Assembly (NCBI GenBank): GCA_030704615.1
Contig: CM060734.1
Span: 19,654,001-19,718,000, forward strand
Direction: 5' to 3'
DNA: 64,000 bases
Source of the DNA: Takakia lepidozioides
Lineage: Eukaryota; Plantae; Bryophyta
Shown here one piece after another: positions 1 through 64,000 of this stretch. Every line of letters starts with the position of its first letter. Positions within the stretch are counted from its first letter, which is position 1. Position numbers and translations under genes: made by a program. The notes beneath the pieces were generated by a model. The model had not been told where the DNA came from. It ran no database searches and was given only the letters and a program-made list of their open reading frames with translations.

Positions 1-281
1 CTGTGCCCCACTGTATGTTATCTTCCATGCTACACAGACCATTGTCATTTACCCTTAAGAAAATTGAATTATCACCCTAAACGAGTTTCACATCGGCTCA
101 TGTCCAACGCATGAATATGGATTGTTGCCCTCAAATGGACATATTATACATGAGAGCATGCACAATTAACCTATCCCTAAACCTAAACCAGCACACATGG
201 CTACTCATCGAGGTCTTCACTTCAGAACCTCCCTGGGAGTTCATCAAAGGATAACTAACTCCAAAACTACAAGAAACTGAC

Positions 282-40662: not shown

Positions 40663-41639
40663 ATGCATTTTGAAATTTTGTCCGGGAAAGGGCTCAGGCA
40701 ATTGACACCAATTTAAAATGACGTCCCAATATCAGCTGAACACAGTTACTTAGCTCTGAAGTCGATGGGTTAGTGTCTAAAACTACTGCATGAATACTAA
40801 GAAACAAGTGCGAACCTATGTGGTCCTTGATTTAAGTGATTAGAACTATAGATCTGATTGCTCTGGGGAATGATGTGCCTAGTGTTCCATGGCACTCGCC
40901 GGCCGGCGGAAATCCCTACAAGGAAGAGTCCATCATACATGAAGGGGAGGAGTACAGGTTGAGGTGGGGATCATCAGCACCTGAGTCCCACTACAAAGAC
41001 AGAGACGTCAGCATTGATGATTTGCTAGAAAATGTTCAACATTCGGAGAGTGTCGTGGACTCCAAAGAAAAAGCAGCTATAGTCCAAAAATCCGCAACTG
41101 AGAAAGACTGGCATTCAAATCGTAAACCTCTGGAAGACTCTATTTCCACAAGAGCTCACCAACTAAGTACAAAACGCTTTCGGGAAACGAAGAATCGGTC
41201 TGCAGACTTTGATAATAGCCGGAACCAAAGTCTGGCACATGAGGAGGGTGCGAAGGGCAGAGGTAAGCGCAACAACATCATGAAACCTTGACAAAATTTA
41301 TGTTTGAGAGGTCTAGAACTCCGCTTTGGGTCTCGTTCTGTTCTCAAGCTGTCTGTCCACGGGCACATTGCGCGCCCCCTGACGTTCTGTTTCATTAGTT
41401 TTGGATTATGAAAGTTCACACACGAGCTGTTTATGTTGGTCAGGATTGTTCTGTGAGGTCCTTTGTCCTAAACTTCGATGGTGGGAGCCTAACCCATAAA
41501 TCCCACGCAAAGCCCCAGGCTATGACAGCGGAACTCGTTGCTGTCTTCTCCATCATGTTTGTGATAGGTGCTGGGAGGCAGTCAACACGGAGGGTGAGTA
41601 CAGAAGCTACAGTGGGAAACAAGAGGCCACCCGTGACTG

Positions 41640-44562
41640 TCTATGGAAAGAATACAAGTGGCGAGATCCAAGCACTTTTGGCCTTCTTGGGAACTGGAAT
41701 TATTCCCTTGACTCCGATCCATGCAACTGGATGAGTGTCCAGTGTGGCGTTGGACCTCTGGCTGGTGGCCGTGTGGTCTCTCTCTCTATTGGTGCTAAGA
41801 TGCTGGAAGGGACCATCACACAAGAGCTGAAGGGTCTTCCTTTTCTCAGAGTCTTGGATTTGAGCGATAACTTGCTCACGGGCAATATACCACGCGAATT
41901 GGGAACCTTAAAGCAGCTCAAACTTCTCCATTTGTTTGGTAACCAATTGACTGGGGAAGTCCCCCCTGAGCTTGGTGACTGTGCGAACTTGGAAGATCTG
42001 CAGATAGGGAGAAAGTAACATTCCACGTACATTTGGCAAGCTTCAAAGACTCCTGAATCTCAACGTCCAGGGATGTAGACTCACAGGAGCGATACCAGCT
42101 GAGGTGGCAAATATTTCAGGGTTGACAATGTTGGCGTTGAGTGACAACTTGCTCTCGAAGACCATTCCACCGGGGCTTGGAAATCTCACAGCACTCCAGA
42201 TGGTGAACCTTGGCGGCAATTTGTTGACCGGGGGAATTGCCGACGAGCTGGTGGGGTGGAGCAGCCTTGTTCAGCTTGAGCTCTCCAGTAATCTGCTAAC
42301 AGGGGCAATTCCATCCTGGCTGGGTTCTTTCCACGCTTTGCAGTATCTGCATTTGGGTGGAAATCAATTGACAGGTGGCATACCCAGATCTTTGGCAAAC
42401 TGTTCCTCTCTTCAGTATCTGAACATCTCATCTAATAACTTGACAGGAAATCTTCTGCCGCATTTTGGCAGGCTCATCAACATGCAATCGTACTTGGACT
42501 TATCACATAACCAGCTCTCAGGATGCATACCCCCAGATCTGGGAGGGTTGCGGCTACTGAAGGGGTTGAACCTCTCAGCGAACTCTCTTAGTGGTGATAT
42601 TCCGGGTAGCCTGGGCGAGTGTGCAGGGCTGATAAGCCTAGACCTGTCAGACAATAAATTGACTGGAAGCATTCCAAATTCTTTTGGTTCACTCCTCAGT
42701 CTCAATTTTTCTTTGAACCTCTCACAATTTTCTGGACGGGTTGATACTCAGTAATCTGGGAGGCCTTTGGTTTCTGTCTCAGCTGGACCTCTCTTCCAAT
42801 AATTTGTCCGGGCTATCGCAGGTTTGGGGCTCACAGAGGCGGACATGGAGCCTTGTCCTTTCCAGATACAGACATCTCTGGGGATTCCATACTCTCTTAC
42901 GAATTTAAGCAAGCTTGTGTTCTTGAATGTCTCTGACAACAAGTTGATAGGCACTGTTCCGGACACTGGCATTTTCTACAGCCTTTCTGCAGAATCTCTT
43001 CTGGGAAATCCTGGGCTTTGTGGAGCTACTCTACACAAGGTGTGCCCAGACATTGTCTCTCCAAACCCAATTGCTTCACTTCATGGAGCTTATGGGCATA
43101 AGATCAAGAGACACACTATGTTGTCCTCCATAGCGGTGGTAGCAATTGAGGGCACTGTCCTTCTCTGCCTTGCCTTGTTTCTGTTTCGTTATCTTTGTGT
43201 CCGCGGCACTCTTCCAGGAGATGATGTTATTGAACATTCTGTTCTCTAAGTACTTGAAAGCTCTCAATCTGACAGCAGAGGAGATTCAGAGGGCAACTGC
43301 CAACTTTAGAGATAATAGTGCTAGCATCAGTGGAGGTGGGGGATCAAACAATGTGGATAAGGCCATTCTCCCAGATGGAACAGTCTTTGCAGTAAAACAA
43401 TGGAGTGTTGCAAATTTAAAGAGGAAGGCCAGAGATAACCTGGAGACAGAGCTAATGAATTTGTCGAAAGTACGTCACTGCAACTTGGTGAGAGTCTTGG
43501 GTTTCTACAGGAGTAGAGACACTCTGGGCATGCTTTTGGAGTTCACGCCCAATGGGAGCCTGGACCAGCACTTGCACCCTGGGGGCCACCAGACTTGCCA
43601 GCTTAGGTGAGTTCTTTGCACACTGCCCCTGCTGAAGCTGGTTATTAAAGACCTCCAGAAGTTGGATTCTGATTTGATTCCTGTTTACCACATGTGACAG
43701 TTGTCTTAGAAGTTGCGAACAGTGCGGATGTGGCATTCATTAAAAGGCATCTTCTGGCTGCATGCACTACTAAGGTTCTCTCCATATGGGATTTGAATAT
43801 TTCCTGGCTTAGTATATGCTTTGATAACTCTGTACCATGTGCGTTTGGGTTGCTATTGTGGTCTCCTTTAATACCTCCATTACAGATTGCAATTGAGAGC
43901 TTGGGAGTGCCATACAAAGCCGCTTATATAGTATGCCCTTGGCTGTGTCTAGGTGGGATGATCGATTTCGGATTGCTATGGGAATCTCAGAGGGTCTGGT
44001 TCATCTCCACCACAACTGTGGGAATCCTATGGTGCATGGTGAATTGAAACCAGAAAATATACTTCTGGACTTGGACATGAATGCAAGAATAACCAACTTA
44101 GGGATAGAGCGACTTGTGAATCCAGCATACAAACGTGCAGCTGCAGCTGCAAACTCAGCTGAATACACCCCATCAGGTTAGTTCTAGTGTAATTTGATGC
44201 AAAATACTTTCAGATGCTTTCCTCATGCAGGAGTAGGCCTGAAGTGCTCAATCCCAGACTGATACTGGAAGGGAGCAACTGAGAGCTTGGAAAAAGTACC
44301 CAGCGGGATGCATTGCTGTGTTGACACAAGTTTTTGTTCTGTTATATCAGTCAACTTGGACCATGTGATTTAGAACTAGACATTGTTCATTTCCTTTTTT
44401 GTTAAGTCTGTTTATGTGGAAACGAAGTAACGTGCATTGTGCCACCTTTCCAGGATGTAAGGTGCATCAATCCACATGAATGTCTAACCCAGTAACACAT
44501 ACCTTCCTGCAGAGTATGCCTCCAGCGGAAATTTGTCACTTAAGGGTGATGTGTACAGTTAT
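41640..44562 (+). pseudogene. LRR receptor-like kinase pseudogene (non-RD, FLS2/LRR-XII-like architecture)
   Basis: LRRNT (EIQALLAF...CNW.SVQC), about 15 plant LRRs (LxLSxNxLxGxIP), GNPGLCG, a TM segment, and kinase AVK...HCNLVRVLG...HGELKPENILLD...KGDVYSY. Disabled by frameshifts (about 42015 and 42720), a 68-bp insertion, a stop at 43247-43249 and C-terminal truncation. Confidence 0.9.
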
Positions 44563-47500
44563 GTTCTTAGACTTATCTGCACCTGATGTGGGGCAATGTT
44601 TTAGCTGTGGACACAGATTGTCGTTCAGGATGCAGTCTTCTTCCATCCCCTTCCTGATCACATAGACAGGCTTCGTTCTCTTTTCATAAAGCACCATTTC
44701 ATTTCATTTCTCTTTTCATAGTTATAATTCAATGTGCTTGACCCAGAGACCCAAATCCGGGCCCTCCTTGGTAAGTGGCTTCCCATATTTCTGGGACCTA
44801 AAGGAGGCTAGTGGAAGCTACTGGATGTGGCTGGAACAATTGCTTTAAGCTCCCTCCTTCTGGGGGCGTGTTAGGCTCCATCTATCAGATGGATCACTCA
44901 GGGATTTAGCCACAAATCCCTAGGTTCTTCTATTTGGAAATCTATCTAGTATGCTTGGGGGAAGTTCAGACCCTTCCTCAAAAAGCAAGAGCCATCATCC
45001 TTCCATGAGGTCCAAAGGCAACATCTTTTCCTCAACTCCTCGTCACCCTCCCCTCTGGAGACAAGTCAGGCTAGGAGATGGGCCTCCTGGGAATCTGGTG
45101 GCTTCACTCAGATTTCCCGCATTTGGACAAATACTCCTTAGTCACTTATTGCCGCTCTGGGATCCAAAAAGGCTACATCTGGTATTAACCCCATTCTGCA
45201 AACAATTCCAAACCCGAGAGACATTCTCAGGCTCGGGGGAGGATCTCCCTCTGCACCAATGGGTAGCTACGCCCTCCCTAATCTCTCATATTCTATACAT
45301 CTCGGAGGTAGACTTGCCTTCTGTCACTGGCTACGCTTTTCAAGCTGAATTGTTCTCGGAGTCCCTCTCTCTAGTTTCTTCAAGAACAGTCACCATCCAA
45401 GCTGCGCTAGTCTCTCCAGCACGCATTTGCCACTGGTCCTCTAAATGTAAAGATTTCAACCCCTCCCTCCCTGTAGGAAGCTCTATTGTTCCTTGCCCAT
45501 AAATGTTTCAAAGCAATCCACCTCACGGCGCTCCGCTCCCTCACAGCTATTATCACCAACAAACACCAACTAGAATCCGACTCTTCGAACGCACCATAGG
45601 TCACCCAGGGTACCCCCTGGGTACCCAGGGGTACCATAGACCCCTCTATTTTCTACGGTCACCTGGTGTCCCACAAGACGCCTATCTTTTTATAGGGCCC
45701 ACCCCCAAAAGAGAGCAGTCGCCGCGAGGCGAAGTGGCTCTTAGTTACGCCGGCTCCGGCCGGAGTCTTCTCTCTCTCTCTTGTTCTTTGGCTGCTAAAC
45801 ATGCATGTGTTATTCGCCTGTGTGCATCCAAGGGGAAGGCACGTGTTGCCACCTTAGTCATAGGAAGCATGCAATGGAGGGGCCAGATATGGACTCTCCA
45901 AAGGCGGATTCGCCCTACTCCCTGCTGGCAAGGGAGGAGAGGAGCCATCTGTATCGGGTCCATCACTATGAATTTCGCCAAAGGATACATCCACTATAGC
46001 CAACTCTAATAACCAACTCTATAACTCTCCATTAGTTTGGAATCGAGGCACATTAGTTTTGGATTGAGGAGATCGTAGCTCATGCATGCAGGTTAGATTG
46101 CAGATTGATGGCGCCGAAATTCTATTCAGTTCATTTGTGTACTGTAGATACTATCATATGCCTGAGTAACATGTTGGTGAAGATCACAGGCGGCATGGGA
46201 ATCAATTGGCGTGAAGGCTGGAGGCTAGAGCTCATGAAGCGTCGATTTTGCAAATCAATTTTGTAACTGGTGCAGTATCTTGCTCATGATATGGCTATGG
46301 CAGAAGCAGCCGCTACCATGAACTGTCGCCAAACACCAGAAAGCAGGGAAGATCCTCAACCATCTTGAGACTCATTTTTGTCTCATCAGTTGTTAGGGTT
46401 TGTAGCTTTGGAGGGCAGCTAGGTCATGAGCCCAGCCCCATGAGCCTGGGAGCTGGGCTCACTTTTAGCGCAGTAAGCGTGAGCCTACGCTCACGCTTAG
46501 TAAGCATGAGCCTAGGGTCTAGGGTGTATTGGAAACAACACCTATTCCCGAGGACCTGAGAACGGGGGCCTATTCCCGTTGGAATGGCCAACACTACCTT
46601 CAACTACACAACACAATAAAAGAATCCAAGAGCACTTTTTGGAAACGAACGACAGCACAATCCATGCCTATAGAATATCACGATGTATTACATGAGTTGC
46701 ATAGGACCGGCACATGAGTAGTATTCAAGTCGAGTTCCAGTATCTTGTATTATTGTCCATTGTTATAAATATCATCTTGATTCATCTTTACTCATCATGC
46801 ATTCGGCCATGCCGACCTTGACTTCTTGTCTAGCCTTGTACCTCTAAGTCTGATCTTTTGTTTGTGTTCAGTCATGCCCTCGTCCTTGACAGTTTGGCGA
46901 GACTAAAGTTTGTTCCTTAGTTAGTTAAGATGGAAGACACAGTTGCGGAAATGGTCGCCACCTTGCAGAGCCTCTAGTTCCAGATGCAAGAACTTCATAC
47001 ATCTACTGCCCACCTACAAGCTGATCAGTCTCAAGATCTTGGCAACGCTCTCAACAATCTGCAACAACAAATTTCAGAGTTGAAGGAGTCAAACAATGGA
47101 TCTTCAACCATACGAGTCCCCACTGCAACAGCTCCTACTGCAACGATTCCTCCACATCTTCAAGAAATTACGAGAGAACCAAAGGTCAGCATGCCCGAGA
47201 AATTTGATGGGACGAGATCAAGATTTCGCGATTTTGTTCAACAAATACGATTGTTCCTACGACTACATCCACAACGTTATCCCGATGAAGGTATTCAAGT
47301 GGGATTCGTGGGCACCCTTCTATCAGGCACTGCCCTATCTTGGTTTGCACCACTGTTAGAGAAAAATTCACATTTACTATACAATTTTGAATCATTCATG
47401 TCCGAGTTCACTACAACGTTTGGAAAGAATGATAGTGAAAGAGTTGCAGAGACAAAAATGTGAAATCTACGACAAAGAGCGCGTCCTGCTTCCATTTACG

Positions 47501-49807
47501 CTGCTGAATTCCGACAATTTGCGTGCAACCTCGACTAGAATGATAAGAGCATCATTAGTCAGTTTCGATGTGGGCTAAAAGATGATGTAAAAGATTTGTT
47601 GCTGACAATGTCAAATGTGAGTACACTGAGTGAATTCATCACCCAAGTCATTGCATGCGTTAATCGTTTGTTCGAAAGACGTCAAGAAAAACGATCTGGA
47701 TGGTCGACGATACACCATGCCGCTGCTACTACGGCACCAAACACAACGATCCATCAGACATCCGGTAGCGATCCTATGCAGATTGATGTTGTCCGATTCA
47801 AGCCATTGACACAACAAGAAAAACAACGACGACGCTCAAATAGTTTATGTCTCTATTGCGGAGAAGAAGATCACATAGCATTAAACTGCCCCAACAAGAG
47901 AAGAATCAAAGCTCGAGGCGCAACTCCAGTGTTCGATACGAGGAGGTCGGAAAACGAAGATGTTCAGTCACAATAGGGAATGCGGTTGGACACCACCAAT
48001 TCTTCACATAAAAAAAAATCTCTTTCTACCTCCAGACCCTGTATCTTGTTTCACAGTTCCAGTAAAGATCATGATGCAAAATTGAGATATCTCCGCAAAA
48101 GCACTTTTAGACTCGGGCGCTCCAGCGTGTTTTATTGACAAAGTCTTTGCGAAGCAACACAATTTAACGCTCGTAAGAAGGAAATTCCCGGCCCATGTTG
48201 AAGTCATCGATGGACGACCGTTAGCATCAGGAAACATTGACCATGAAACTCGACCCCTTGAAGTAAAACTTAAAAATCAAGCATCACAGATTGTTTTCAA
48301 CGTCATCCAATCTCCAACGAATCATGTGATCATTGGACTTCCCTGGTTTATAATTCATAATTCTGACATCGACTGGCGATCGCGAAAAATTTCGGCAAGA
48401 CAAAAATGCAAAAGTACCAAAGGTATTCAACCCCTATTTCTTGGAGTTTGAGCCTTCATGAGAGCTACAAAGAAAGACGCGACATTTGCGCTTTATGTGA
48501 CTTCAATCAAGACCACAACAGACCAAGGTACTTCGACATTACCCACTCAATATCAAGATTTCAAGGATGTATTCGAGAAGAAAAATGCAGACATGTTGCC
48601 AGAACATCGACCCTATGATTGTGCAATTGAGTTGCAAGAAGGAACCCAACCACCATTCAGCCCAATCTACAATTTATCTGAGACGGAGTTGGCTGCTTTA
48701 CGCGGATATTTTGATGAAAATTTGTCGAAGAATTTCATTCAACATTTGAAATCACCCGCGGGAGCACCTATTTTATTTGTGAAAAAGAAATACGGATCGT
48801 TACGCATGTGTGTGAACTATCGTAAGCTCAACAAAATCACTATAAAAAATCGTTACCCACTACCGCTGATTTTCGGACTCCTCGAACAACTTGGACGAGC
48901 AAATGTTTTCACAAATATCGACTTGAGATGAGCTTACAACCTTGTACGAATAAAATAAAGAGATGAATAGAAGACTATTTTTCGCACAAGGTACGGACAT
49001 TTCGAATATAGTGTTATGTTTTTCGGTCTTACAAATGCTCCAGTAATTTTCCAACACATGATGAATGACATCTTTCGAAAAAATTTAGATGACTTTGTAG
49101 TCATCTATTTGGACGACATTTTCACATAATGAAGAAGAACATGGTCGCCATGTACCCCTTGTCCTTGATAAATTGATGGAAAGATGACTATATGTCAAGT
49201 TGAAAAAATATATTTTCCACCAATCTGAAGTCGAATTTTTGGGCTACATTATTTCCGACAAATGAGTCTTTATGGATCAGAATAAAATACAAACCATCAT
49301 TGAGTGGATTAAACCAACTTCGGTTCGAGTTGTACAATATTTTCTAGGGTTTGCAAATTTCTATAGGATCTTCATCAAGGACTACTTCAAAATTGTTGCA
49401 CCATTGACACGACTCACAGGGAAAGACAAGTTTATATGGGACGAGAAGGCTGACCAAGCATTTGAAAGACTAAAATAGGCATTTACAACGGCCTCAATTC
49501 TGGTACATGCAGACCCATCCAAACCATTCTTCTTAGAAGCAGATGCATCGGACTTTGCACATGATGCTGTGCTATCTCAATACGGTACGGATGGCCGACT
49601 TCACCCTGTTGGTTTTCGCTCTCGGAAATTTTCTGCTACAGAAATCAATTATGAAATCCATGACAAAGAACTTTTAGCGATTATCGATGTCTTTGAGGAG
49701 TGGTGTCATCTATTAGAAGGGGCTAAACATCAGATTACTGTCTACACCGTCAGATGTTCTTTTTCGACGATCGTATCTTGCGCCGAAAGAATGGGAGACA
49801 GCTTTCG

Positions 49808-50831
49808 CACTACAGGAAAATGGGAGGGTTTTCGACGCCGCGGCGTCGTAAAACAACATTTTTCGGGCAGGGGGGAAGAACCAAATTTGCGACGCCCGGG
49901 CGTCGCCAAAAAAACGCCGCAAATTTACGACCAATGAGGGTCACAAAAAGGTGAAACCGTGATTTGCGACGCCGACGCGATTTGTGACGCCCGGGCGGAA
50001 ACCAAAAAAAAAAAAAAAAAAAAAAAAAAACTACTATGCAATGTAGATTTAGCATCCTCCGGGGGTCACAAAGTGCGACGCCCGGACGTCGCAATTTAAA
50101 GGGGTACATTTGAATTTAAGCGGGAAAATTTGAATTTCAAAAACTTGTTGACCATTGACTCCGGTTCTGTCTAATGGCGATACGTTCATTGTTCTACATA
50201 TATCATGCAATGCATACTTAAACCCAAGACCTCCACATTATAAAATTTCTAAGACACTACAGACTAACCAACACACCTACCCTACATCTATGTATCACAA
50301 AAGCAATCTATATATATATATATATATATGAAGATTTTCTTCAAGTTCCTTCTAAGGGGGTCATTCTTGTGACGTCGGGGAGTTGCAACCTTCACAGCCT
50401 TAGTGCCCAGCCCCAGCCCCAGCCCAGCCCCAGTGTCATCGCCGTTGTTGCATCCCCCTACCGCCAGGCGCCCCAAGTGACGCCCTTGTAATGAAATAGA
50501 GAGCCGCAAAGCCAAAAAAAAAAAAACAAACAAACAAACTCCCACTGTGGTGATGCTGTGTTGCGACGCCCTGGCATCGCAAAGGCGCTGGGCGCCCTCA
50601 GTGACGCTTTAGCGGCGTCGCAACGTCTAAAATAAAAATAAATAAATAAAACTTCGCAAGAAAAAAAATCCGTCGCAGCGAGGGTCTCTTTCCCTCTTCA
50701 TGCCACCTTGCGACGGCTGGGCGTCGTAATGGTGTCGCAGCGGGGCGGCGTCACAAAAAAGCACCGCGGGCTCGGCGCGCGGGGCGTGGGGGTGCGGCTG
50801 GCGTCGCAAACCTCCCCCATTTGCTGTAGTG
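49808..50831. mobile_element. Non-autonomous CACTA element inserted in chromovirus pol
   Basis: Left end CACTACAGGAAAATGGGAGGGTTTTCGACGCC. Reverse complement of the right end is CACTACAGCAAATGGGGGAGGTTTGCGACGCC. Many subterminal GCGACGCC/GGCGTCGC repeats. The expected 3-bp TSD is not preserved (TCG vs CAA). Confidence 0.88.
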
Positions 50832-52639
50832 CAACCAATAGAAATTCATCATCTTGAAACCAGCAAATCTCAAATTGAATATATTATCCATGTCCACCTA
50901 TGATGATGCAGAGATCATAAAGGAGATTCAGGAAGTACTGAAGAGCGACCAATTTGCTAAAATACTATGAAGTCAATTGAATCAACCTCAAGACCACCCA
51001 AATGTTACAAACGATTTCGAATTCAAAGATGGTTTACTTTACTTCAAGGGACTTCTCTATGTACCTTTAGGACCCATACGATTTTGAATTCTTCAAACAT
51101 GTCATGATCTTCCGGCTACAGGACATTTTGGCTTCAACAAAACAATGGAATTGATATCCAGGGACTATTGGTGGTCGCAGATGTAGAAACTCGTGAAATT
51201 TTTTATAAAATCTTACGACACGTGTGCTAGAGCGAAGGGACCACGACATCGACCTTACGGCCTTCTTCAACTATTATCCATTCCCAAGGGTCCATGGTCG
51301 TCCGTGTCTATGGACTTTATTACGGACCTTCCAATTTCCAAAACCACTGATTCAATCCTTGTTATTATGGATCGTTTTACGAAGATGACACATTTCATTC
51401 GATGTAATAAGACGGTTACAGACGAGGAAACTGCAAGACTCTTCCTCAATAATATCTACCGCATTCATGGACTCCCGCGAAGGACATCGTATCTGATCGA
51501 GGACCACAGTTCATATCAAATTTCTGGAGGGGATTATTTCACATATTGGATACTAAGATCAACCTCTCTACAGCTAATCATCCACAGACTGATGGTTAAA
51601 CCGAACGCGTAAACCAGATTTTGAAGCAGTATCTTCGTTGTACGATAAATTGTCACCAAGATAATTGGACGGACCTTCTGTCATTAACTGACTTTGCCTA
51701 CAACAACACTATACATTCTTCGACCAAGCAAACTCCATTTTTCTCCAGTTATGGTCATCATCCTCGAGCAAACCCTTTCCATATGAAGGTTGTTGGAAAC
51801 CTTGCTACTCATCTTGCTACAATTCACAATGAGTTTACATTCCACCTCGCAGAAGCTCAAAAACAATACAAGGAGTATGCAGATCAACATTGACAACTCC
51901 AACCCCAGTTCAAGGTCGGCGATCGTGTATGACTTCTTCAACATGAAATACAAACCTCGCGACCATCAAGGAAGTTGGATTATCAACGCCTGGGACCATT
52001 TAAAATTATTCGTCAAATAAATCCGGTCAGTTTTCTGCTTGAACTCCCACGAAGTATGTGCATCCACCCAGTCTTCCATGTCTCATTATTAGAGTTGTAT
52101 CATCGCTCAAGTATCCCCGGGCGCGTTTCTGTACCACCTCCACCGATTGAAATCAATCAGGAAATCGAGTATGAAATCGACGAAGTCCTAAACTCTCGCA
52201 TCAAGTATAAACGTCTTGAGTATTTCGTACATTAGAAAGGCTATGACATTAGCGAACGAACGTGGGAACCGTCATCCGACCTCGCCAATGTATCTGACGA
52301 AGTCCAAGAGTTTCATCTACGATATCCAGCTAAGCCTCGAGTCACATGTCAATAAAACGTCACACCGATGACGTCAGCCACTTCAAGGTGAAGATTTCAC
52401 ACTCGGTGCACCTGATACACGCTAAGCAGGGAGGAACATCATACATCAGTATATATAGCTACACTTCCAGCACTCTTGCATCTTGTATTGGCAACATGAA
52501 GTCACAGGAAACGGATACATTAGAGTTGTCGCTTATCCAACTACCAAACCAACCGTTCCGACTCTCACAACCTTCAACATCACACCGACGTCCTCCAGAC
52601 GATGGGCCACCAAGGCGACGCGTACTTCCTCGTCTGGAC

Positions 52640-53380
52640 CATTGGTGGCCGGATATAGCACTCTACCCCGGTTAGTGAGTCGGTTACCACCCCGGTTAGT
52701 AGGTATACATAACCGCATATAGGGTATTTTTGCAAAATAGAGTAAATAGATAACCGACGGTTGGGAGGTGAGTATGTATATATATATGTACCATATATTA
52801 AGGTTAGCACTACACTGTATACCCGGATTAGTAAGGTGTTTTGACCCCCTAGAGCGGTTACAATTATGTATAAGACACGTTCATACTCACAACGCAGTTG
52901 CATTTCTAGCGATGTCTCTCCATTGAAGACATTCAATGAATCATGACATTGATGATATGGGGAGACCAGTTGTGCTGATAGCAAGAATGATTCAGAGTTC
53001 CAAGCTCCTGGCCACTGAGGTGGTGACAGAGGGTTTCCTTATGACATAGCTCATGGCCAAGTTGCTGCACCCTGGAGCCCCTAGGGATGTCAGGTGTGAA
53101 TTGATTATTTTTAAAGAAAATCATTGAGAAATACAAGTTCTCATTCAATATATTATATGTAACCGCCAATTGTATATATATATCCGCCAATTGTAGGACA
53201 CCTCTAACCGTCCTATTCATAATCGTCTAAATTTGAAGAATTTTCTAGAATAGATAACCGGTGGATATACTAACTTAAAAAAATTATCCTTATACATAAC
53301 CATGGAGTGTGTCCATCCCAAAATAATTGAAGTAACCTTAACCGGCGGATATATAAAATTCTTATAACCGGCCAACACTG
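52640..53380. mobile_element. Non-autonomous hAT element inserted in the chromovirus 3' UTR
   Basis: 8-bp TSD GTCTGGAC at 52632-52639 and 53381-53388. Imperfect TIR CATTGGTGGCCGGATATA vs CAGTGTTGGCCGGTTATA. Subterminal ATAACCG repeats. Confidence 0.88.
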
Positions 53381-53701
53381 GTCTGGACCCCGTACGACGG
53401 CAAGTGGAGTCTACTCGAAGTCTGATAATCCTGTTGGAGGTTGAGGCTTCGAACCTAAAGGGCAACGGAATCACGTTTGAAGGCAGCTTCGAAGATCAGA
53501 ATGCTCAAATCACTGCGTGGTCCCGAGTTCAAGGTGTTGGACACTATCGATGGTTGCAGGGACCTATAAATCATTTGAGTCAAGAACGAAGATCCGAATA
53601 CTTGGCAAGTACCATTCGCCGAATTTTGGATTTTCTCCAACTCTAAGCAAATCCAAGATTTTACCGTTCCTCGAGGAACTCGGCGCTAAAGGAAGGGGTG
53701 A

Positions 53702-54347
53702 TGTCACGGACATAGCCTAGAAGAATTCACCAAGAGTAATTATCAGAAGTTACCAAGTTATCAAAAGTTACCGTGATTTATCATGATTTATCATGATTTA
53801 TCATGATTTACCATAAATTACCATGAGTTATCAAATTACCATAAATAACTACCAAATTACTAAGAGTAACTCAGGAAACTGCTCAGGAAGCTTCCTGGTG
53901 GAGGAAGTTTCGCAAGAGACTTCCCTTGGTCAAGGAAGCTTCTCAGGAGACTTTTCTTGGCAGGGGAAGTTTCTCAAGAGACTTCCCTTGGCTGGGGAAG
54001 CTTCTTATGAAACTTCCTAATAGCCAGTATATATAGAAGGCGAGACTGGACATTATTTAGTCTTGCCAACACAAGTTCCAGCTATTCTTGTTTCCAGTCC
54101 CAGTACTTCAGTCCAGCTTTGAGTACTCTAGTCCAGTTTCCAGTATCTGGTACTCCAGTCCAGTTTCCAGCATTCCAGTATTCAAGTCGAATTCCAGTAT
54201 CTTGTACTCTTGTCCATTGTTATAAAGATCATCTTAATTATTCTTTACCCATCATGCATTCGGCCACGCCGACCTTGCTTCTTTTCTAGCCTTGTACCTC
54301 TAAGTCTGATCTCTTGTTTGTGTTCAGTCATGCCCTCATCCTTGACA
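53702..54347 (+). repeat. 3' LTR of the chromovirus (646 bp)
   Basis: TGTCACGGA...TCCTTGACA, preceded by a PPT. Internal tandem repeats: ATCATGATTT x3 and ~39-bp GGAAG(C/T)TTC units. Confidence 0.9.
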
Positions 54348-55415: not shown

Positions 55416-58254
55416 AGCCTTGCCCAGCATAAGTGGCTGAGCTCCCGAGTCAAGCAGTACTCGTAGTAGCTGAAACCTCCTGCCCGCCGGCCCACTCAAA
55501 CAGAAAACACCATCCTGGTTGTCCAACAAAACAACTCCAGGTGTCACCATGGCGCGCTCAATGGCTGGCCTAGCTGGCAGTTACAGCTTGCCATGGCGCA
55601 GCCGTGGCAGTCTTGACCCTCAAATCCGAGGATCCTGCCACCACTGCACCTTCTACTAACTTTGAAGAAGATGAAGTGACATCCCCACTCTCACAGAGTG
55701 TTGCTGCTAGTCTGAACACTGCAGCTGGTCTTACCCCCGGCGTCGCAATCATGGTTGCCGAGAACAGTAGGGCCTGACACACAGAGGTAGTCGCCCCCAA
55801 CAGCACACTTGCTGCACTAGCCTTGGCAGCAGGTGTCGGCGCTGCACGTGTAGCTCTCCCCCATGGCACAATAATCTCCGCCTCGGTATCCGTGGGGCGA
55901 GAACTAGGTGCCATGGATGGCGTCAACATTGTCTCCGCCAATGTGAATGATTGAGGCAGCCTGGCTTGACGGCTTGCCTCCCCACACTGTGGATCTAACT
56001 CCACCTCTGCGCCTCGTGGCTCATGAACTCGTGCTGCTCCTCGAGTCACGGCTGCAGCAGAATCCACCTGTATAAGTGGCCACTCAAGTGTTGCCCCGCA
56101 CATAAATCCCATGTCTCTCATGCCTACCATGTCTCCTCCATCAGGATGACGCTGTTGAGGAGGAACAGGGGATGGACCCTCACGTCTTGGAGCTGGTACC
56201 ACATGAGTTGTGGCCATGGCAGCAAGCCTCTGCTCTAGCTGTTGAAGCCAGTTGGCCATGTTTTGGTCAATGCCCTGACCTCCACGACCTTGGCCATGTT
56301 GTGCTTGGCCTCGTCCTGCACCTCGTGCCTGACCACCTCGTGCTATTTGAGGTGCTCCACCTCGCCCCCGGCCACCATTGTTCCCTTGGAACTGGCCTCG
56401 CCGCAACTCAGGGTGCAAGTCATAACACTGGGCCTCTCTATGCCCATACTTGCCACAATGCCCACACTGCAACTGTGTAGGTTGTGCTTGTGCCAATCCT
56501 TTGCCGCTCTCTGGGCAATCCTTCTTGACATGGGGTCCTCCACATGTCCAACACACCACCCCTAGTTTTTGTTGGCCTGCAAAAGAAGCTACTGGCCTCT
56601 GCATCTGAGGCCCCCTGTAAGCTCCATGGAATTTGGGTTGGGCAACCTTGCCCCTCTGACCACGCTGCGGTACAATGTGCTGCGTTTGTTGGTTGGCAAA
56701 CACACCTCGTGGCATGTCTTTGCCAAACCCAATGGTTATTATACGCTCCTCCACCATGTTGAGCTCAATCCGCTCAGCCAGCAGAAACACATCTGCTAAG
56801 GTGGGTTGGGCCGCTTGTAACAGGGTTGCATCCCGCACCCTTCTCCTGAGCTCCTAGTCCAAAATTCCATACCAGAATTGGATTGCCTGAGCTTCAGTGA
56901 CCCCTTGGGTTACACTTATCAAGCACTTCATACGAGAGTAGGCCTCTCGCAAGCTCTCACTGGACTTGCGTTGGAAGTCTTGCAAACTTCGCAACTTCTC
57001 TGTCCGTACGACTTGGTAGTTCCTCCGCAACGCTTGGAAGAACTCCACCACCGGGTTGAATCTAGGCACATGTGTTGTAGTCGTGGCAGGAGGAATGGTA
57101 GCACCTTTAGAACTGAAGTACCGGCACTACTTGTTCCACTACTAGTGCTGGCAGTGGGAGATATTGGTGCTGATGCAGCTACTAGTCGTGTCGTGCCTCG
57201 AGTAATGGAGACGTAGTCAGGTGACCAATACATCCTCCACTCCTCAATCTCTGCTTCATGTCCTCGCCTGAACTCGTGGTAATCGTCCATAGGCGGGCCT
57301 TCCAAATGCTGGAACAGTCCCTTCCACGCCATGAATGGGGTGAACAGCTGTGGATTGCACATCTGCTGCAAATCACACCAGCTGTCGAACTCCTGGATAA
57401 AGTCATCCAGCTCGATTGTGCCCACAGCTCCTGAGTACCTACGAGGCCCCTTGGTAGCTCCATACATCTCCTCCATGTCGTCCCACAACAATGGCGAAGG
57501 AAACTGCACACCGGTTGATGAAGCCTCTGAGTCTGTATCAGACTCTGCACTGGTTGAGGGTGGAGGTGAAGGTGGTCTGAACCGAACACCTCATCTTGTG
57601 AACCCACTCTCACTGAAACTGCCTGTAGCTGTACTCCCCTCAAAACCCTTGGGTAACTCCGTGATGACACTCACAACCCGCACCTCCCCCACGTAACACT
57701 ATAAGGCTCTAGTACTAATTCTAATAGTGACACGGGTGGGTACCTGTTGCGGTTTAAGGGTCATATCCTAAGGGCACCTGCACCTGCATCCACTGCAAGA
57801 ACTCCTATGGTTGGCTGGTCATCAACCCAGCCTCACCATAGAAGAAACACTGGTGGTCTTGCTGGTCATCACTCTAGCCTCACCACCGACAGCATACTCT
57901 AGGATTGACCGGTGATCAAATCCGGCCTAATCCCTATGAAAGCAAGCGCCCACACAAAACCAACATGGCGCACAGTCAAGCATGCAGGTGTGGAGGGGAT
58001 CCAAACACAAAGAACCAAAACATCAACACCCCCACACCAAAATCCCTCCGCAGTGCTGCTCCTGCAGAATACCCCAGCCCAAAACCCGGACTGACTCTTG
58101 CCTCCACCTATTGAAAGGTTTTGGCCTACTGAGAGGATGGAAAGCTATGGGAAGGAGAGACTAAAGCAATTCCTAACCCCAGCATGCCCTCAACCCGACA
58201 CATAGGTGTGGTGGAAGGGTGTTTTTTAGTCTCACAATTGTGAGCATGGTCACT
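55416..58254 (-). mobile_element. Inverted 5' half of a Ty3/gypsy element: putative LTR/leader, gag and protease N-terminus
   Basis: Minus strand: candidate LTR start TGTCGGG at 58200 and PBS-like TAGTACTAGAGCC (cf. Met-i TGGTATCAGAGC) at 57717-57705. Gag fragments 57509-55570 carry Zn knuckles CWTCGGPHVKKDC and CGHCGKYGHREAQC. The frame then reads ...RVLLDSGAQPLMLGKA (aspartic protease catalytic motif) and ends at 55416. Confidence 0.85.
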
Positions 58255-61200
58255 TTCTGTGGATGTGAAAAGCATGACACGCCATGAGCTGTTCATTAGA
58301 CTGCAGCCGGATCATCCTACAGATGGCTCAGTTACCATTGTGATGGACGCAGTTTCATGTGATGTGTTGGTTGGTGGGGCAGTATTATATCCCATGGGCT
58401 TCACCCTGGATTTTTGGGAGGAGTCGGCCTCGTATAGGCCTGGATGGCAATCAGGAGATGGTCGTCGTGTGCAACTCCCTGTGACATTCATTGGGGGTGT
58501 TGCAGCTGCCCAGCGGGGTAAGATACCGACACTAGCAGCCTTCACAGGTGTAGTGAGTTGGCCTGGAGAGTTGCTAGAAGGCAATGCTCATGCAGAGGAT
58601 GTGCCACCTCCAGCAGAGCAAGATGATATGCATTGTACGGCGGAGTTGCCTACCATGGTTGCTCACAGTCCATTGTGGGGCACGAGCAAAGATTTGCAGT
58701 AGACTGCTGATAGACGGGTGCAACAAGCTTGGGTAGAGGCATTTGTACCGTCACGAGAGGAGGACAGTGCAGTGATTGCACCAGAACCACCTCAGTTGTC
58801 GCCATTGGATACCACACCTATTGTGTGGCAGTGCCTGGATGAAGGCATATGCCTTCTGGACTTGTTTGGCGGGATCAGCACTGGATTGGCTGCAGTGCTG
58901 CAGGCAGGTGTACGAGTTCAACGTTACCTGTATGTGGGGAGGGATGAGACTGCACGACGCGTCTCACTGCGCCATGTTGCTCAGTTGGTGCAGCAGTACC
59001 CTGATTTGTTGCCAGTGTCTGCAGTTCGTGGATACCAGCAAGCCTTGCTAGCAGAGATCTCTTTGCTGGGGGCGCAGGATTTGGAGCGGGTTGGCCTTAT
59101 TCACTTGGTAGTGGCAGGTTGGCCTTGCCAAGGGCATTCATCAGCCGGGCATGGCAATGGGTTACAAGACTCGAGGTCACGCCTGTTTTGGGAGATGTTG
59201 AGGGTCCTGCGCTATTACAGCTTCAGCAAACAGACTCTCCGGCATATATCTTGGAGAATGTGCCATTGATGGGTAATTCTCGAGCCACGGTGATGGCCAG
59301 TGTGCATCAAGTCCGGTCTTGGCTTGGATCGGTAGTGTTGCTGGATGTAGCTGCAGTGGGGTCACGGGCTCATCGCCCACGACTATGGTGGACCAACTTG
59401 ATGCCACCCGCATTGCTCAAGCAGGCTTTTGATGGGGTGCAGCGCCCAGCGCACCTGATAGTTGATAGCATTCTGGACACAGGGAGGCAGTCTCAGCGTG
59501 TGAGACACGATGACCGGTCACCTTTGGCAGTGATCAACAGGATAGGTCAACCACGAGCAGCACTACCTACACTCCTCAGCTTTCCTGGATCTCATGCTTT
59601 CAGGGATAGTGGACCTGGCCTCCTGTGGGATGCTAAGTTGCAGCAGTTAGTGGAGCCCAATGCTGACGAGCGCGAGCAGGCAATGGGTTTTACCACTGGT
59701 ACCACGGCGGTGCCATCTCTTTCTGAGGCATCACGTCGTCAGGTGTTGGGGCAAGCAATGGATCTCAATTCCTTGACCTGGATTATCAGCTTGGCTATGG
59801 CTGAGCAGCGCAGAGTACGAAGTACATTTCCCTTGATGGTCTCACTGCCTACCCAAACGGTACAGGCAGCGAGTGGGGGCAAACAGGTGAGGACCACGAG
59901 GTGCATGCCACATCCATGGCACATGTGGGAGGTGCTCGAGGTTCAGAGGGAGTTGGCAGCCAAGGCGGCGGTGATGGATGAGGTTGGGGATTTTTCTCGG
60001 GTTGAGGAGGTCCTCAAGGATGAGATGATGGGGCAGGATGAGGCATTGTCACTAGCAGAGCAGGTAGTGGTCACTGCTCAAGAGGTTGCAGCATAGCAAC
60101 CACGGGACGCGTCTTCTACTTCTAAGCATGCTGGACTCAAGGTTGCAGTCACGGAGGACAACTGGGAGCCTGATGTTGGACCCATAGTCACCGGAGGAGA
60201 GAGACGACGTATACGACGGTTCTTGAGGGCTTACAAGAACTGCTTTGCCTTCAGTTTAAAGGACTTAGGAGCACTGAAGGGTCAAGAGATTTGCATTGAA
60301 TTAGCCACTGACATGCCAATCTTTCGGAGACCCTATAGATACAGTGACATGGAGAGGTCCTTGATTCAGATGAGGACTCATGACCTCTGGGAGGCTGGTT
60401 TGATGGAGCTATCTAGTGGAGAGTATGCTTCAGCCACAGTGATGCCAACCAAGAAGGATGTTTATGGCATGGACGGAAAGACGTATGTGCGGTGATTACC
60501 GGCCTGTAAATCGTCAGACCAAGTCCGATAGGTATGTCATGTCAACATCAAAGGAGATCTTTGATGCCACTGGGCATGCCAAGGTCCTTAGCACTTTGGA
60601 TTTACGATCCGGATATCACCAGTTGCCGATCAAGGAGGCGGATAAGCAGAAGACGGCATTATGGGGGATCAATGTGCACGGGAAGGATTGCCTATACCAG
60701 TGGCGGTTATTACCATTTTTTTAAGAACGCTCCTGCAAAGTTTCAGAGAGTCATGGACAAGATTCTAGCAGGGGTGGAGTTTGCTCGGTGCTACATAGAT
60801 AACATCATCATCTTTAGTGCTACGGTGGAGGAGCATGAGAGACACCTTCAGGTGGTATTTGAGCGCTTGAGGGCGCACGGATTGAAGTTACATCCGGGGA
60901 AGTGCAAGTTTTTCCACAACCAAATTGAGTATCTGGGTCACATGATATATCCTGGAGGATTGGGGGTACAGCAGACTAAGGTAGAGGCCATTGCACAAAT
61001 TCCACGCCCCACGGATGTGAGCCAAGTTTGAGCTTTCATGGGGTTGACAAACTATTATAGACGGTTTGTCAAGGGATTTAGTGCCATTGCAAAGGCTCTA
61101 ACCAAGCTGACCAAGGTGGACCAGGAGTAGCAATGGGAAGATGAGCAAGAACGAGCTTTTCAAGAGCTCAAGGCAAGGCTGACCTCGGCGCCCATCTTGA

Positions 61201-61700
61201 GATGACCTATCAGGGGGCGTCATTTTCAGCTGCATACAGATTGGAGCATGCTGGGGCTTGGAGCGGTGCCCACACAGGTGGATGATGAGGGAAGAGAGTT
61301 CGTAGTGGCTTATGCTAGCCGCTCGAACAACGCTGTTGAGGCTAAGTATAGCTCATATGAGGGAGAGTGCTTAGCTGTAATGTGGGTCGTGGCACACTTC
61401 AGGTGCTATCTATATGGCAATCTCTTCACCCTTGTCACAGATCACCAGCCACTCAAGTGATTGATGGAGTCAGACAAGCTTACAAGAAAGCTTGCATGGT
61501 GGGCACTCATACTCCAGGAATATGACTTTCAGGTGGTACATCGACCCGGTCTAGTCAATCGGGATACGGATGGGTTGAGTTGCAATCCATGCACGAGCCA
61601 TCAGGATGACACTGGAGCTCGGTGGCATGGTGAGACGGGCAAGATGGTGCCCGGATGGCATACATCTTCATTTCTGTGTATCTTGGCAACGGAAGTCTAG
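58255..61700 (+). mobile_element. 3' part of the same Ty3/gypsy pol: protease C-half, C5 DNA methyltransferase, RT, RNase H (decayed)
   Basis: CDVLVGGAVLYPMGFTLDF (protease C-terminal motif), then the DNMT domain. RT: RRMCGDYRPVN, LDLRSGYHQ, KNAPAKFQRVMD, CYIDNIIIF. RNase H: LHTDWS, YSSYEGECLAV, LVTDHQPLK. Truncated before integrase by the MULE insertion. Confidence 0.93.
58844..59790 (+). pseudogene. Retrotransposon-encoded C5-cytosine DNA methyltransferase domain (DNMT3-like motifs)
   Basis: Motif I LDLFGGI (58856-58876), IV GWPCQG (59117-59134), VI YILENV (59245-59262), VIII AHRPRLWWTN (59368-59397), IX EREQAMGF, X RRQVLGQAMDL, in canonical order. One 1-nt frameshift at about 59215. Confidence 0.92.
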
Positions 61701-62099
61701 GTTGGACCTACAACAGGGCAGCGTAGCTACGGCGTGAGCTCAGCCCCGTGAGCCTGGGAGCTGAGCTCACGTTGTAGCTGCAAAGCGTGAGCGGCACAAA
61801 TCTGCTGGAAGAAGGTCCTATAGGCGAGATTGCAAGAGAATTTTACCGTGGACAAAACAAAGGGGGCCACCATGCACCATGTCTGCAATGCCTGCACAAA
61901 AAGAGGAATATGAAAATATGGCAGAATTGAGCTCAGAATGATTGACACACTTTTTCAATTCACAGATAGACGCTTACAATGAATGGCATGTGCATTTGCC
62001 CTGGTTCCGTGAACGAAATGTATGTGTTTGTCCTAAATGCAAAGTCTTCACACGGTAACCTGGAAACCAGCGTGGGAAGCGGGCATGGCTCGTATGTGT

Positions 62100-64000
62100 T
62101 CAAAGAGAATTTGGCGGAGCCCTACGTGAGGTGTCCCGCTGCAGAAGGGTGATGACTTCTCCGTAGCCTAGTGTGGCTTGGTGAATGAATTGGTCTCTCT
62201 TACCGTCGCAACACATAATTACAAGGTATATGTAATATTGATGCTTGCAGGGGACCCACTTCCCTCTCATGCCGAGAGCGCCCTCACGCATCGTTACAAA
62301 ATCCGGACAAGTGCAAGTAGGGAAATTCCCCACGGTAACCTGATATTCTTTGCCATGAAGAACTGAGCCAATAGACAGCACTGTGTAAATCCGTCCATAC
62401 CCCGGGGCAGGGACTTCGGTGATACGAGCCACCCGAGCCTGCAAAATTCTAGCCGATTCCATCTTGCATTCGTGATCTGCACCCGAAGCGACACGGCGCA
62501 CTGTTTTTCCATCTCTTTTTGTTGGGTGGGAGTCGGCACCGGGTGGAGGCATTGCCGGAGCATGTGGCACATCTGTGCCGACAGTGCACAAGGGCACCAC
62601 CCGGGACCGTGCAAGACAAAACCCTCCCTCCTCCAGCATGCTTATCTCGGTTGTTGACAGCGACGTCCCAAGTTTCACAGGCCAAATTGCGGGGGGGGGG
62701 GGTTTCATTATCACCGAAGGACGAACTGTTCCCTTGACGCATCGTGCCATATCGTCTGGGCAGAACCAGAACTTGTGGTCCTTTGACTCCCCACTATGAT
62801 AAGGTCGGAACAACCCTGTGAATGTTGGAGCTGGAGTCCCCCTGGAGCCTTTGCATATTTTTGATTTGCATTTCTTGAAAGAGGGGGTCCGAATTGCCAT
62901 GCAAGCAACTCTAGATCCTGGTGGGGTGCGTTCTATATGCCACTCACTATCAATGCAATCAGATTCCTGCACCATGGCCACCACCTCCTCCAATGGGATT
63001 CCTGCTGCTGTGCTTGCATGTTCTGCACCTGCTCCACTGGAGGAGGACCCACCTGGGAAGGGGGGCACACGACTTAGTCTGCACTGGAGACACCTTTGGC
63101 ACAGAGAAATTGACCCTGTCTGGGCGATGGGAATCTCCATCTGACCCTGGAAGAGTGTTCAATTTCCTTTTGCATGATCCAAATCTTTCCTCGCCTTCCA
63201 AATGAGGGAGCCTGGATTGCAAAGGGGAGCCTTCAGTGCACCTGTTCAGAGCTCTGGCCATCTTCGATGGGTCTCTACTCGCAGCCCTTAGCATCAACAA
63301 AGTCGTACCGGGGCCCTTGCCTCCACCCCGATCCCATCAGAAAATACCTGTTTGTTGTGTAAGTGCCCGCACCATGTCATCAGCAGTGGCCAATACAAGT
63401 CACGACCTGCTTGGTAGATTGCTGCATCCAGGCGTTGTGAACAGTCTCCGCCAAATTACAGGATGGCATGTCGGCCAAGTCCTCCAAGGACATGTCCTGT
63501 AGGAGGCATTGCATGGAAATGTGAGGACGAAAGAAATGGAAGAGGTTCTGCAAGCGACAATCCAAAACCCCAAATGAACAGGCACGATGCAATTTTGTTT
63601 TTTTGGGATTGAAGAGGCTTACCGTCGTCATGAAAGCTCCCCACTGTTGTACCTGAAGTGCCAGAAACCAACCAGTCCTCCAACTCCTTCAGTGGATACC
63701 AGTAGCAGCACCAGAGGAGAACCACCAAGCCCGGATTGCCTGGTAAGTGCTCTGAGCTTCTCCCATTAAGGTGGCATTTTTGTACTTGAGACAGAGCCTT
63801 CTGTGCTCCAACTGAAGGTCAGGGCGAATGCAGCGCTTTGTATGACGTGCCAGAGATTGACTCCAATGGAAGAGGCATGTGCGCTCCCTATTTCCATTGG
63901 GACCTTAGGATCCCCCGAACCAAACACGCGCCGCACTGCATTGAAATTTGCCTGTGCACTATCAGCAAATGAAGCCCGCAAAATTTGTGTCTGTATTCCA
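62100..64000 (-). mobile_element. Mutator-like (MULE) DDE transposase with C-terminal SWIM zinc finger, frameshifted, continues past window end
   Basis: Minus-strand fragments ADSAQANFNAVRRVFG (second catalytic D region), RTCLFHW (CxxH) and CNLAETVHNAW (catalytic E). ORF 62100-63140 has the SWIM motif YQVTVGNFPTCTCPDF...PCKHQYY. Confidence 0.85.

Follow-up and report, generated by a model that had tools for sequence, protein, structure and literature searches.

The window, the whole 64,000-nucleotide stretch of Takakia lepidozioides DNA analysed here, contains one copy, dead and rearranged, of a bryophyte Ty3/gypsy family present in high copy number and equipped with a DNMT3-like cytosine methyltransferase domain of its own (Table 1). 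Alignment of a Marchantia homologue with tblastn distributed it over three places in the window: gag, linker and protease active site (residues 1-648) map to the minus strand at 57476-55419, residues 650-673 to 42824-42883 within a disrupted LRR kinase gene, and residues 682-1267 to 58274-60021. The three pieces are consecutive in other copies represented among contigs of the host's sequencing runs. Contigs from these runs (X1, X2, X7) also connect 42812/3 with 55421, the two lying on opposite strands, and 42882 with 58272, with a short side of only 28-29 letters at these two LRR-gene junctions, below our acceptance bar. Junctions 55420/1 and 58271/2 are spanned by contigs of the same runs, which may derive from the window's own sample.

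Table 1. Features of the rearranged element copy, in window coordinates.
Feature	Position	Strand	Evidence
Displaced middle protease piece, 70 bp, inside broken LRR receptor-kinase gene	42813-42882	+	tblastn with relatives; contig junctions
Inverted gag, linker and protease N-half	55421-57677	-	tblastn, motifs
Protease active site LDSGAQP	55454-55434	-	behind gag
Zinc knuckle	56466-56425	-	within inverted gag
Decay in inverted gag part: stop and frameshifts	56856 (stop)	-	sequence
Truncated 5' leader / terminal-repeat remnant	57678-58201	-	family-level depth ends at ~58201, with loose ends there
Low-copy filler at inversion breakpoint, 70 bp, not family sequence	58202-58271	.	depth ~130 vs 1e4-1e5 alongside
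Protease C-half and spacer	58272-58834	+	tblastn
DNMT3-like C5 methyltransferase domain, canonical motif order	58835-59811	+	Pfam, motifs, relatives
Conserved in-frame stop TAG-CAA-CCA closing ORF1, predicted readthrough site	60094-60102	+	stop in 40/42 alignable relatives
Reverse transcriptase and connection	60097-61205	+	RVT_1, tblastn
RT decay: frameshifts; stops	near 60469, 60720; 61029, 61128, 61203	+	sequence
RT catalytic YIDN replacing YIDD	60792	+	motif
RNase H with a stop at 61458, truncated at its end	61206-61718	+	RT_RNaseH; family contig reaching 61718

No second copy of the 70-bp filler occurs in the window, and neither an integrase nor 3' repeats could be found there, the element ending at ~61718. 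Summed read depth over the element, methyltransferase (MT) bins included, was 2.6e5-9e5 against 75-181 in flanking bins in run X1; these values give no copy number and mark a high-copy repeat that generally carries the MT domain, since the MT bins are covered as deeply in the host's runs as the gag and RT bins. A preliminary description of this locus had overlooked gag and the rearrangement. It had placed a protease next to the DNMT, which holds for the C-terminal half, from 58272 onward, and misses the active site, inverted elsewhere. Its view of the copy as dead is supported; RT and RNase H contain two frameshifts and four stops beyond those it listed.

The methyltransferase domain

The domain contains the motifs DLFGGI (58859), WPCQG (59120), ENV (59254) and AHRPRLWWTN (59368), followed by the motif IX region (59668) and LGQAMD (59746). 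All motifs reported in the preliminary description, together with TAG 58700, TAG 60094 and YIDN 60792, were recovered at their reported positions, and so was the frameshift splitting the MT domain, with a frame change at ~59214 that is missing from other host copies in the run contigs. TAG 58700 is decay, with a sense codon at the same place in named relatives. The window domain has lost the motif II acidic residue and the motif IX arginine, and it keeps the catalytic cysteine, ENV and the motif VIII arginine pair. Pfam searches matched its N-terminal half to PF00145 (E 4.5e-8, 33.3 bits, cut-off 22) and returned no match for the C-terminal half alone; downstream of the domain RVT_1 and RT_RNaseH were matched, and the Retrotrans_gag match to the inverted gag was weak (E 0.0012).

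For an unbroken family relative (P0004), the best sequence match among solved structures was DNMT3A/B (E 6e-12 for DNMT3A), with weaker matches to DRM (E 1e-8 or worse). Its predicted fold (pLDDT 89.6) matched DNMT3A in Foldseek (E 1e-19, target TM 0.83). Motifs, PF00145, fold and relatives all agree with the earlier proposal of an own, non-permuted DNMT3-like domain in a Ty3/gypsy element. That proposal had also set the domain apart from DRM, in accordance with the canonical motif order and with DRM scores below those of DNMT3A/B, and from MET1/CMT, in accordance with the absence of BAH and chromo Pfam domains. Across 170 aligned domains, the catalytic cysteine is present in 166 and the ENV glutamate in all 170, and there is hardly any variation at the motif VIII arginines or the SAM-binding glycine; the motif IV proline is replaced, mostly by glutamate, in many algal members.

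Domain order and a conserved stop among relatives

Using the MT domain as bait, we recovered 51 metagenome loci. In 45 of these, corresponding to 37 distinct insertions since some were seen twice, gag/PR precedes and/or RT/RH follows the MT domain, and integrase (rve and PHD finger) was found in 23 of the same-order loci. The 51 include 15 loci that are continuous from gag to integrase, four with the domain alone and two with the domain between RNase H and integrase. A protein search with the C-half of the domain returned 33 proteins at 46-76% identity, the named ones being from Marchantia, Calypogeia and Sphagnum (53-73% identity), and a wider protein search yielded 269 clusters at E<=1e-30. 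Among 252 domain proteins, the MT lies after the protease or before RT in 73 and between RNase H and integrase in 115, with 64 placed in neither type. The named members of the after-protease type are streptophytes (Marchantia, Calypogeia, Sphagnum, Closterium, Mesostigma, Klebsormidium), and those of the RNase H-integrase type are chlorophytes (Haematococcus, Cymbomonas); a JGI code among the chlorophyte-type members presumably denotes Chromochloris. No vascular plant appeared among the hits carrying organism names, most hits being without such a name, and none of nine pattern matches in viral contigs was confirmed. Complete Gag-PR-MT ORFs of 1280-1331 aa exist, with all eight motif patterns in seven of the nine checked, and the Marchantia annotation includes several gene models that span the full ORF1, with chromosome V among their locations.

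The TAG at 60094 had been read as decay within a pol gene that harboured the DNMT. A probe of this region matched 43 of the 51 loci, 42 of which could be aligned, and the homologous site reads TAG in 30, TAA in 10 and TAC in two. The most shared of the decay stops within domains occurs in 45% of copies, so that a stop present in 40 of 42 loci is conserved and does not represent decay. At the protein level, ORFs from Marchantia, Calypogeia and Sphagnum terminate 72-77 aa past the domain. The DNMT hence closes the Gag-PR ORF at a conserved stop, and a placement inside pol is not supported.

After the stop, RT continues in the same frame, and CAA directly follows the stop site in 41/42 loci. The window's TAG-CAA-CCA agrees with UAG-CAR-YYA, the plant type I readthrough motif of tobamoviruses (PMC3159437). 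Most relatives read CAA-CCC, matching five of the six bases and missing the A at +6, and mostly have an ATG next; in these, reinitiation or splicing may be an alternative to readthrough. No ATG occurs at this position in the window. RNA structure 3' of the stop is weak (z-scores +0.1 to -2.0). Four Marchantia MT-RT fusion models, which are without the stretch around the stop, are read as gene predictors splicing past it; MT is fused to RT without a stop in several unnamed relatives and in a Closterium model. From frame and stop context, we infer that readthrough probably operates at the conserved stop. Because the DNMT lies upstream of this stop on the Gag ORF, more methyltransferase than reverse transcriptase is expected, and the former is likely made in far larger amount.

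Constraint, co-inheritance and element ends

Comparison of the window with the metagenome copies showed saturation at synonymous sites (pS 0.73), and gave dN values of 0.25 for MT, 0.21 for RT, 0.15 for RH, 0.39 for PR and 0.57 for the linker. By this sequence comparison, the DNMT is under purifying selection between lineages. Among the metagenome copies, themselves decayed, dN/dS is 0.60 for MT, 0.44 for RT and 0.98 for the linker; shared variants were not clearly more synonymous than private ones, in a test dominated by recurrent transitions. Phylogenies of MT and RT-RH for 81 elements, inferred without host DNMT3, shared 19 of 25 strongly supported MT splits, with one conflicting (Spearman 0.70), indicating that the two were co-inherited. 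A quick tree, restricted to proteins of placed type with an MT of 250-380 aa, groups the window with Marchantia and Calypogeia at full support. The AMP deaminase resembles those of Marchantia (71-72%) and Sphagnum (71%) to the same degree, in keeping with a bryophyte-like host. Within green plants the element lineage is an old one, and its deeper branches depart from the host tree, with Closterium falling outside a clade of bryophyte, Klebsormidium, Mesostigma and chlorophyte-type members. Old paralogous lineages, horizontal transfer or tree error are possible sources of this deep discordance.

CpG depletion was considered as a mark of self-methylation. Codon-boundary CpG counts were 23 observed vs 98 expected for the window element, and 34 observed vs 33.8 expected for a neighbouring DNMT-less Ty3. 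A DNMT-less Ty3 in one of the relatives' loci (L035) shows stronger depletion (0.29) than the family does (0.56), so that depletion is not specific, and we rejected it as such a mark.

Both ends of the window copy are lost, and the ends of the family were therefore described from relatives. Three independent complete insertions (L035, identical to L037; L042; L036) all have the structure A-body-B-A-B, with a 339-bp repeat A at the left, B-A-B at the right (B, 115 bp) and TG...CA termini, and they are flanked by 4-bp target duplications (CATA, AAGG, TCTC). The A pair and the B pair have diverged to the same extent (91-93%). At the inner B|A junction a polypurine tract is followed by CA-NN-TG, the outer A|B junction is not precise, and two further loci (L016 and L020) terminate with a single B. 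In the window, a palindrome at 58231-58244 was tried as a B|A junction and rejected, as it falls in the low-copy filler.

In 8/13 loci, the best pairing partner of the 12 bases that follow the left A is a site 171 nt from the end of A, and this site lies ~30 nt behind a TATA-like box. There are 11-12 Watson-Crick pairs at this site in 5/13 loci; no compensatory change was seen, and a search of the window's leader for a self-priming complement gave none. These pairings provide a lead towards Tf1-type self-priming in the relatives, and the form of the B|A junction a similar lead towards integration from a two-repeat circle cut there.

Relation to known elements and proposed function

The closest known system is KnitGypsy-Dnmt3 of Klebsormidium nitens, described as a Gypsy element under purifying selection with an intronless, non-permuted Dnmt3-type domain and DIRS-like A-coding-B-A-B repeats (PMC5890265). 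The likeness extends to Gypsy RT/RH in the window, integrase in relatives, the Dnmt3-type domain and purifying selection; the repeat layout occurs in the three complete insertions among relatives, both ends of the window copy being lost. A K. nitens protein, KFL_013780020, matches the window with E 1.8e-46 (31% and 40% identity), and its knuckle-PR-MT order suggests that it is a KnitGypsy copy. The present family differs in its land-plant hosts and high copy number, and in not being sister to the K. nitens sequence in our trees. By its authors' account, a single ORF of the K. nitens element contains the DNMT together with RT and RNase H (PMC5890265), an arrangement absent here, where a stop intervenes in the window and in 40/42 relatives; because of this difference we do not class the window family as KnitGypsy-Dnmt3. 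The K. nitens protein, which is partial, ends 7 aa past the domain, and the KnitGypsy family may consequently be mixed in ORF layout. The family is a known kind of element, the Klebsormidium Gypsy DNMT, extended to land plants with an altered gene arrangement.

Other systems are more distant. SymbioDIRS-Dnmt3, whose domains methylate CG in yeast (PMC5890265), and SymbioLINE-Dnmt are likewise retrotransposons bearing a C5 methyltransferase, but belong to other classes (tyrosine recombinase and LINE, respectively), and a Symbiodinium protein matched the family profile with only E 6e-11. The EpiLTRs of Cymbomonas and Euglena are also Ty3-like with a cytosine DNMT, although DNMT4-related and with DAM and chromodomain, and their authors separate them from streptophyte Gypsy-DNMT3 (bioRxiv 10.64898/2026.05.21.726589). 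Tobamovirus type I and MuLV gag-pol readthrough similarly involves an in-frame stop between structural ORF and polymerase, with UAG-CAA-CCA as in the window (PMC3159437); here, in contrast, relatives have CAA-CCC, the stop follows protease and DNMT instead of gag, and readthrough is predicted from sequence only. Phygy, a moss non-chromovirus Ty3/gypsy lineage of ~8.6 kb with 4-bp target duplications, is described in REXdb with a tRNA-Trp primer-binding site, NCGN targets and no extra domain (PMC6317226), whereas the relatives here have a non-tRNA-like primer-binding site, non-NCGN duplications and an additional DNMT.

According to a 2019 account, transposon-encoded methylases are missing from land plants such as tracheophytes (PMC6338049), and Marchantia is absent from three supplements of de Mendoza 2018 (PMC5890265). 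A 2025 paper and a 2026 preprint refer to 'streptophytes', citing or echoing the 2018 work, and their trees may include bryophyte sequences. In the literature searched, with most subscription journals outside it, we came across no account of a family in land plants, of the conserved stop or of the arrangement seen in chlorophytes.

The mechanism we propose builds on the domain order, the conserved stop, and the retention of MT under constraint and its co-inheritance with RT. Most ribosomes would stop after Gag-PR-DNMT, and a few would read through into RT-RH-IN-PHD. Within the particle, the protease would set the methyltransferase domain free to methylate newly made cDNA, and the methylated copy would enter the genome marked like host transposon DNA. 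We favour, with some reserve, the core of this reading: an ORF1 Gag-PR-DNMT ending at the conserved stop, RT-RNase H-integrase expressed via predicted readthrough, and a packaged methyltransferase predicted to methylate the element's own cDNA. Judged separately, release and packaging of the domain are somewhat more likely than not, and methylation of cDNA, probably at CG by analogy with other DNMT3s, is an evenly balanced proposition. Only tentatively do we suggest the full scenario, in which an ancient green-plant-wide Ty3 lineage reached land plants, its DNMT3 moved to the Gag side of a leaky stop, methyltransferase-loaded particles deliver pre-methylated cDNA, the element primes itself and inserts via a two-repeat circle that integrase opens at the internal CA-NN-TG to give the A-body-B-A-B ends, and self-methylation is testable via the open Marchantia ORFs.

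Two other functions of the domain can be envisaged. As abundant Gag-PR-DNMT product or after release, it could act outside the particle and methylate, in trans, the host's chromatin or copies already integrated, for instance to damp sister copies or, with the integrase PHD finger, to shape insertion-site choice. That finger, present in relatives, the several full ORF1 gene models of Marchantia, chromosome V among their locations, and the ORF1 position, which would imply protein beyond the needs of cDNA methylation, are in its favour, but no targeting domain was seen and the chlorophyte placement between RNase H and integrase fits a cDNA or integration-complex role, making a trans function rather unlikely. 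Less likely still is retention of the domain as a nucleic-acid-binding or RNA-modifying module for particle assembly. Its fusion to Gag, the replacement of the motif IV proline, mostly by glutamate, in many algal members, CpG loss that is not family-specific, and the inactivity of the Klebsormidium domain on yeast DNA, a result its authors call inconclusive (PMC5890265), would all suit such a module, which is difficult to reconcile with the near-invariance of the catalytic cysteine, ENV, motif VIII arginines and SAM glycine in 170 domains or with a predicted fold matching DNA-bound DNMT3A.

From the scrambled window copy and from trees lacking host DNMT3, one might suspect that the DNMT plays no part in the element and is a piece of a host DNMT3, captured or nested, or a product of misassembly. 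This explanation is already largely refuted, and we regard it as highly improbable: the domain is intronless and colinear with relatives, 45/51 loci share the same order, MT and RT trees are congruent, dN is near that of RT over a saturated synonymous distance, and contigs span both 55420/1 and 58271/2. A one-off capture or nested host gene, which the preliminary description had listed among the outcomes that would refute it, runs counter to the colinearity, the shared order and an MT depth equal to that of gag and RT, which mark the domain as a trait of the family.

For the methyltransferase, the conserved stop suggests production at capsid-protein amounts. The Marchantia element ORFs are annotated as ordinary genes and can confound bryophyte DNMT inventories and methylome studies. 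The 2018 work did not demonstrate activity of the Gypsy type (PMC5890265); with an abundant liverwort and moss family that has open Gag-PR-DNMT ORFs in Marchantia, the question of why retrotransposons keep their own cytosine methyltransferases becomes testable in a genetic model.

Rearrangement of the element and its surroundings

The DNMT-bearing Ty3/gypsy element appears to have been reshaped by a single multi-break event, in which its 5' half was inverted, 70 bp of its protease were displaced and a 70-bp foreign filler was left behind. The displaced piece, exactly as long as the filler, now lies 12.5 kb away within an LRR kinase gene, whose pseudogene carries several frameshifts in addition to this insert.

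Features of the window and related loci
Feature	Position (window)	Strand	Remarks
Host AMP deaminase gene	279-10858	-	
LRR receptor-kinase pseudogene	41500-44400	+	several frameshifts
Rearrangement sites	42813-42882, 55420/55421, 58201-58272		
Second Ty3 element, DNMT-less	46720-54347	+	172-bp repeats, 92% identity
Low-copy ORF, ~300 aa	54537-55420	+	severed at inversion breakpoint
Pyrimidine/purine tracts behind stop	60105-60195		also metagenome loci L001, L005, L036, L042
ORF-bearing repeat interrupting DNMT element	61720-64000	-	

The severed ORF has no Pfam match and is strongly CpG-poor (2 CpG against 20 expected), and the DNMT-less Ty3 element shows no CpG depletion (o/e 0.96–1.06). The first 70 bp of the interrupting repeat recur at 46417-46484, inside a second site at 46412-46484; its ORF, without a Pfam match, bears a Cys/His pattern that we take to be SWIM-like, and the repeat may be a transposon of the Mutator-like kind. 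Past the window end may lie the DNMT element's integrase half. The host AMP deaminase is 71–72% identical to its Marchantia and Sphagnum counterparts alike (matched exons).

Potential RNA pairing behind the stop

A pyrimidine tract ~10 nt 3' of the stop preceding RT could pair with a purine tract ~80 nt further on, with weak folding z-scores. This potential pairing is present in both lineages, the window element and its metagenome relatives.

Relatives in Marchantia and of chlorophyte type

Several full Gag-PR-DNMT ORFs are entered in the Marchantia annotation as hypothetical genes, including the related proteins P0319 and P0320 (Mp_Vg00370 and Mp_Vg00540), and some are carried on the V sex chromosome. 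The order RT-RH-DNMT-INT-PHD, of which no published description was found in the literature searched, is encoded in an open 2074-aa ORF of metagenome locus L047 (5903-12124), which stands for a large chlorophyte-type group (115 proteins in this analysis).
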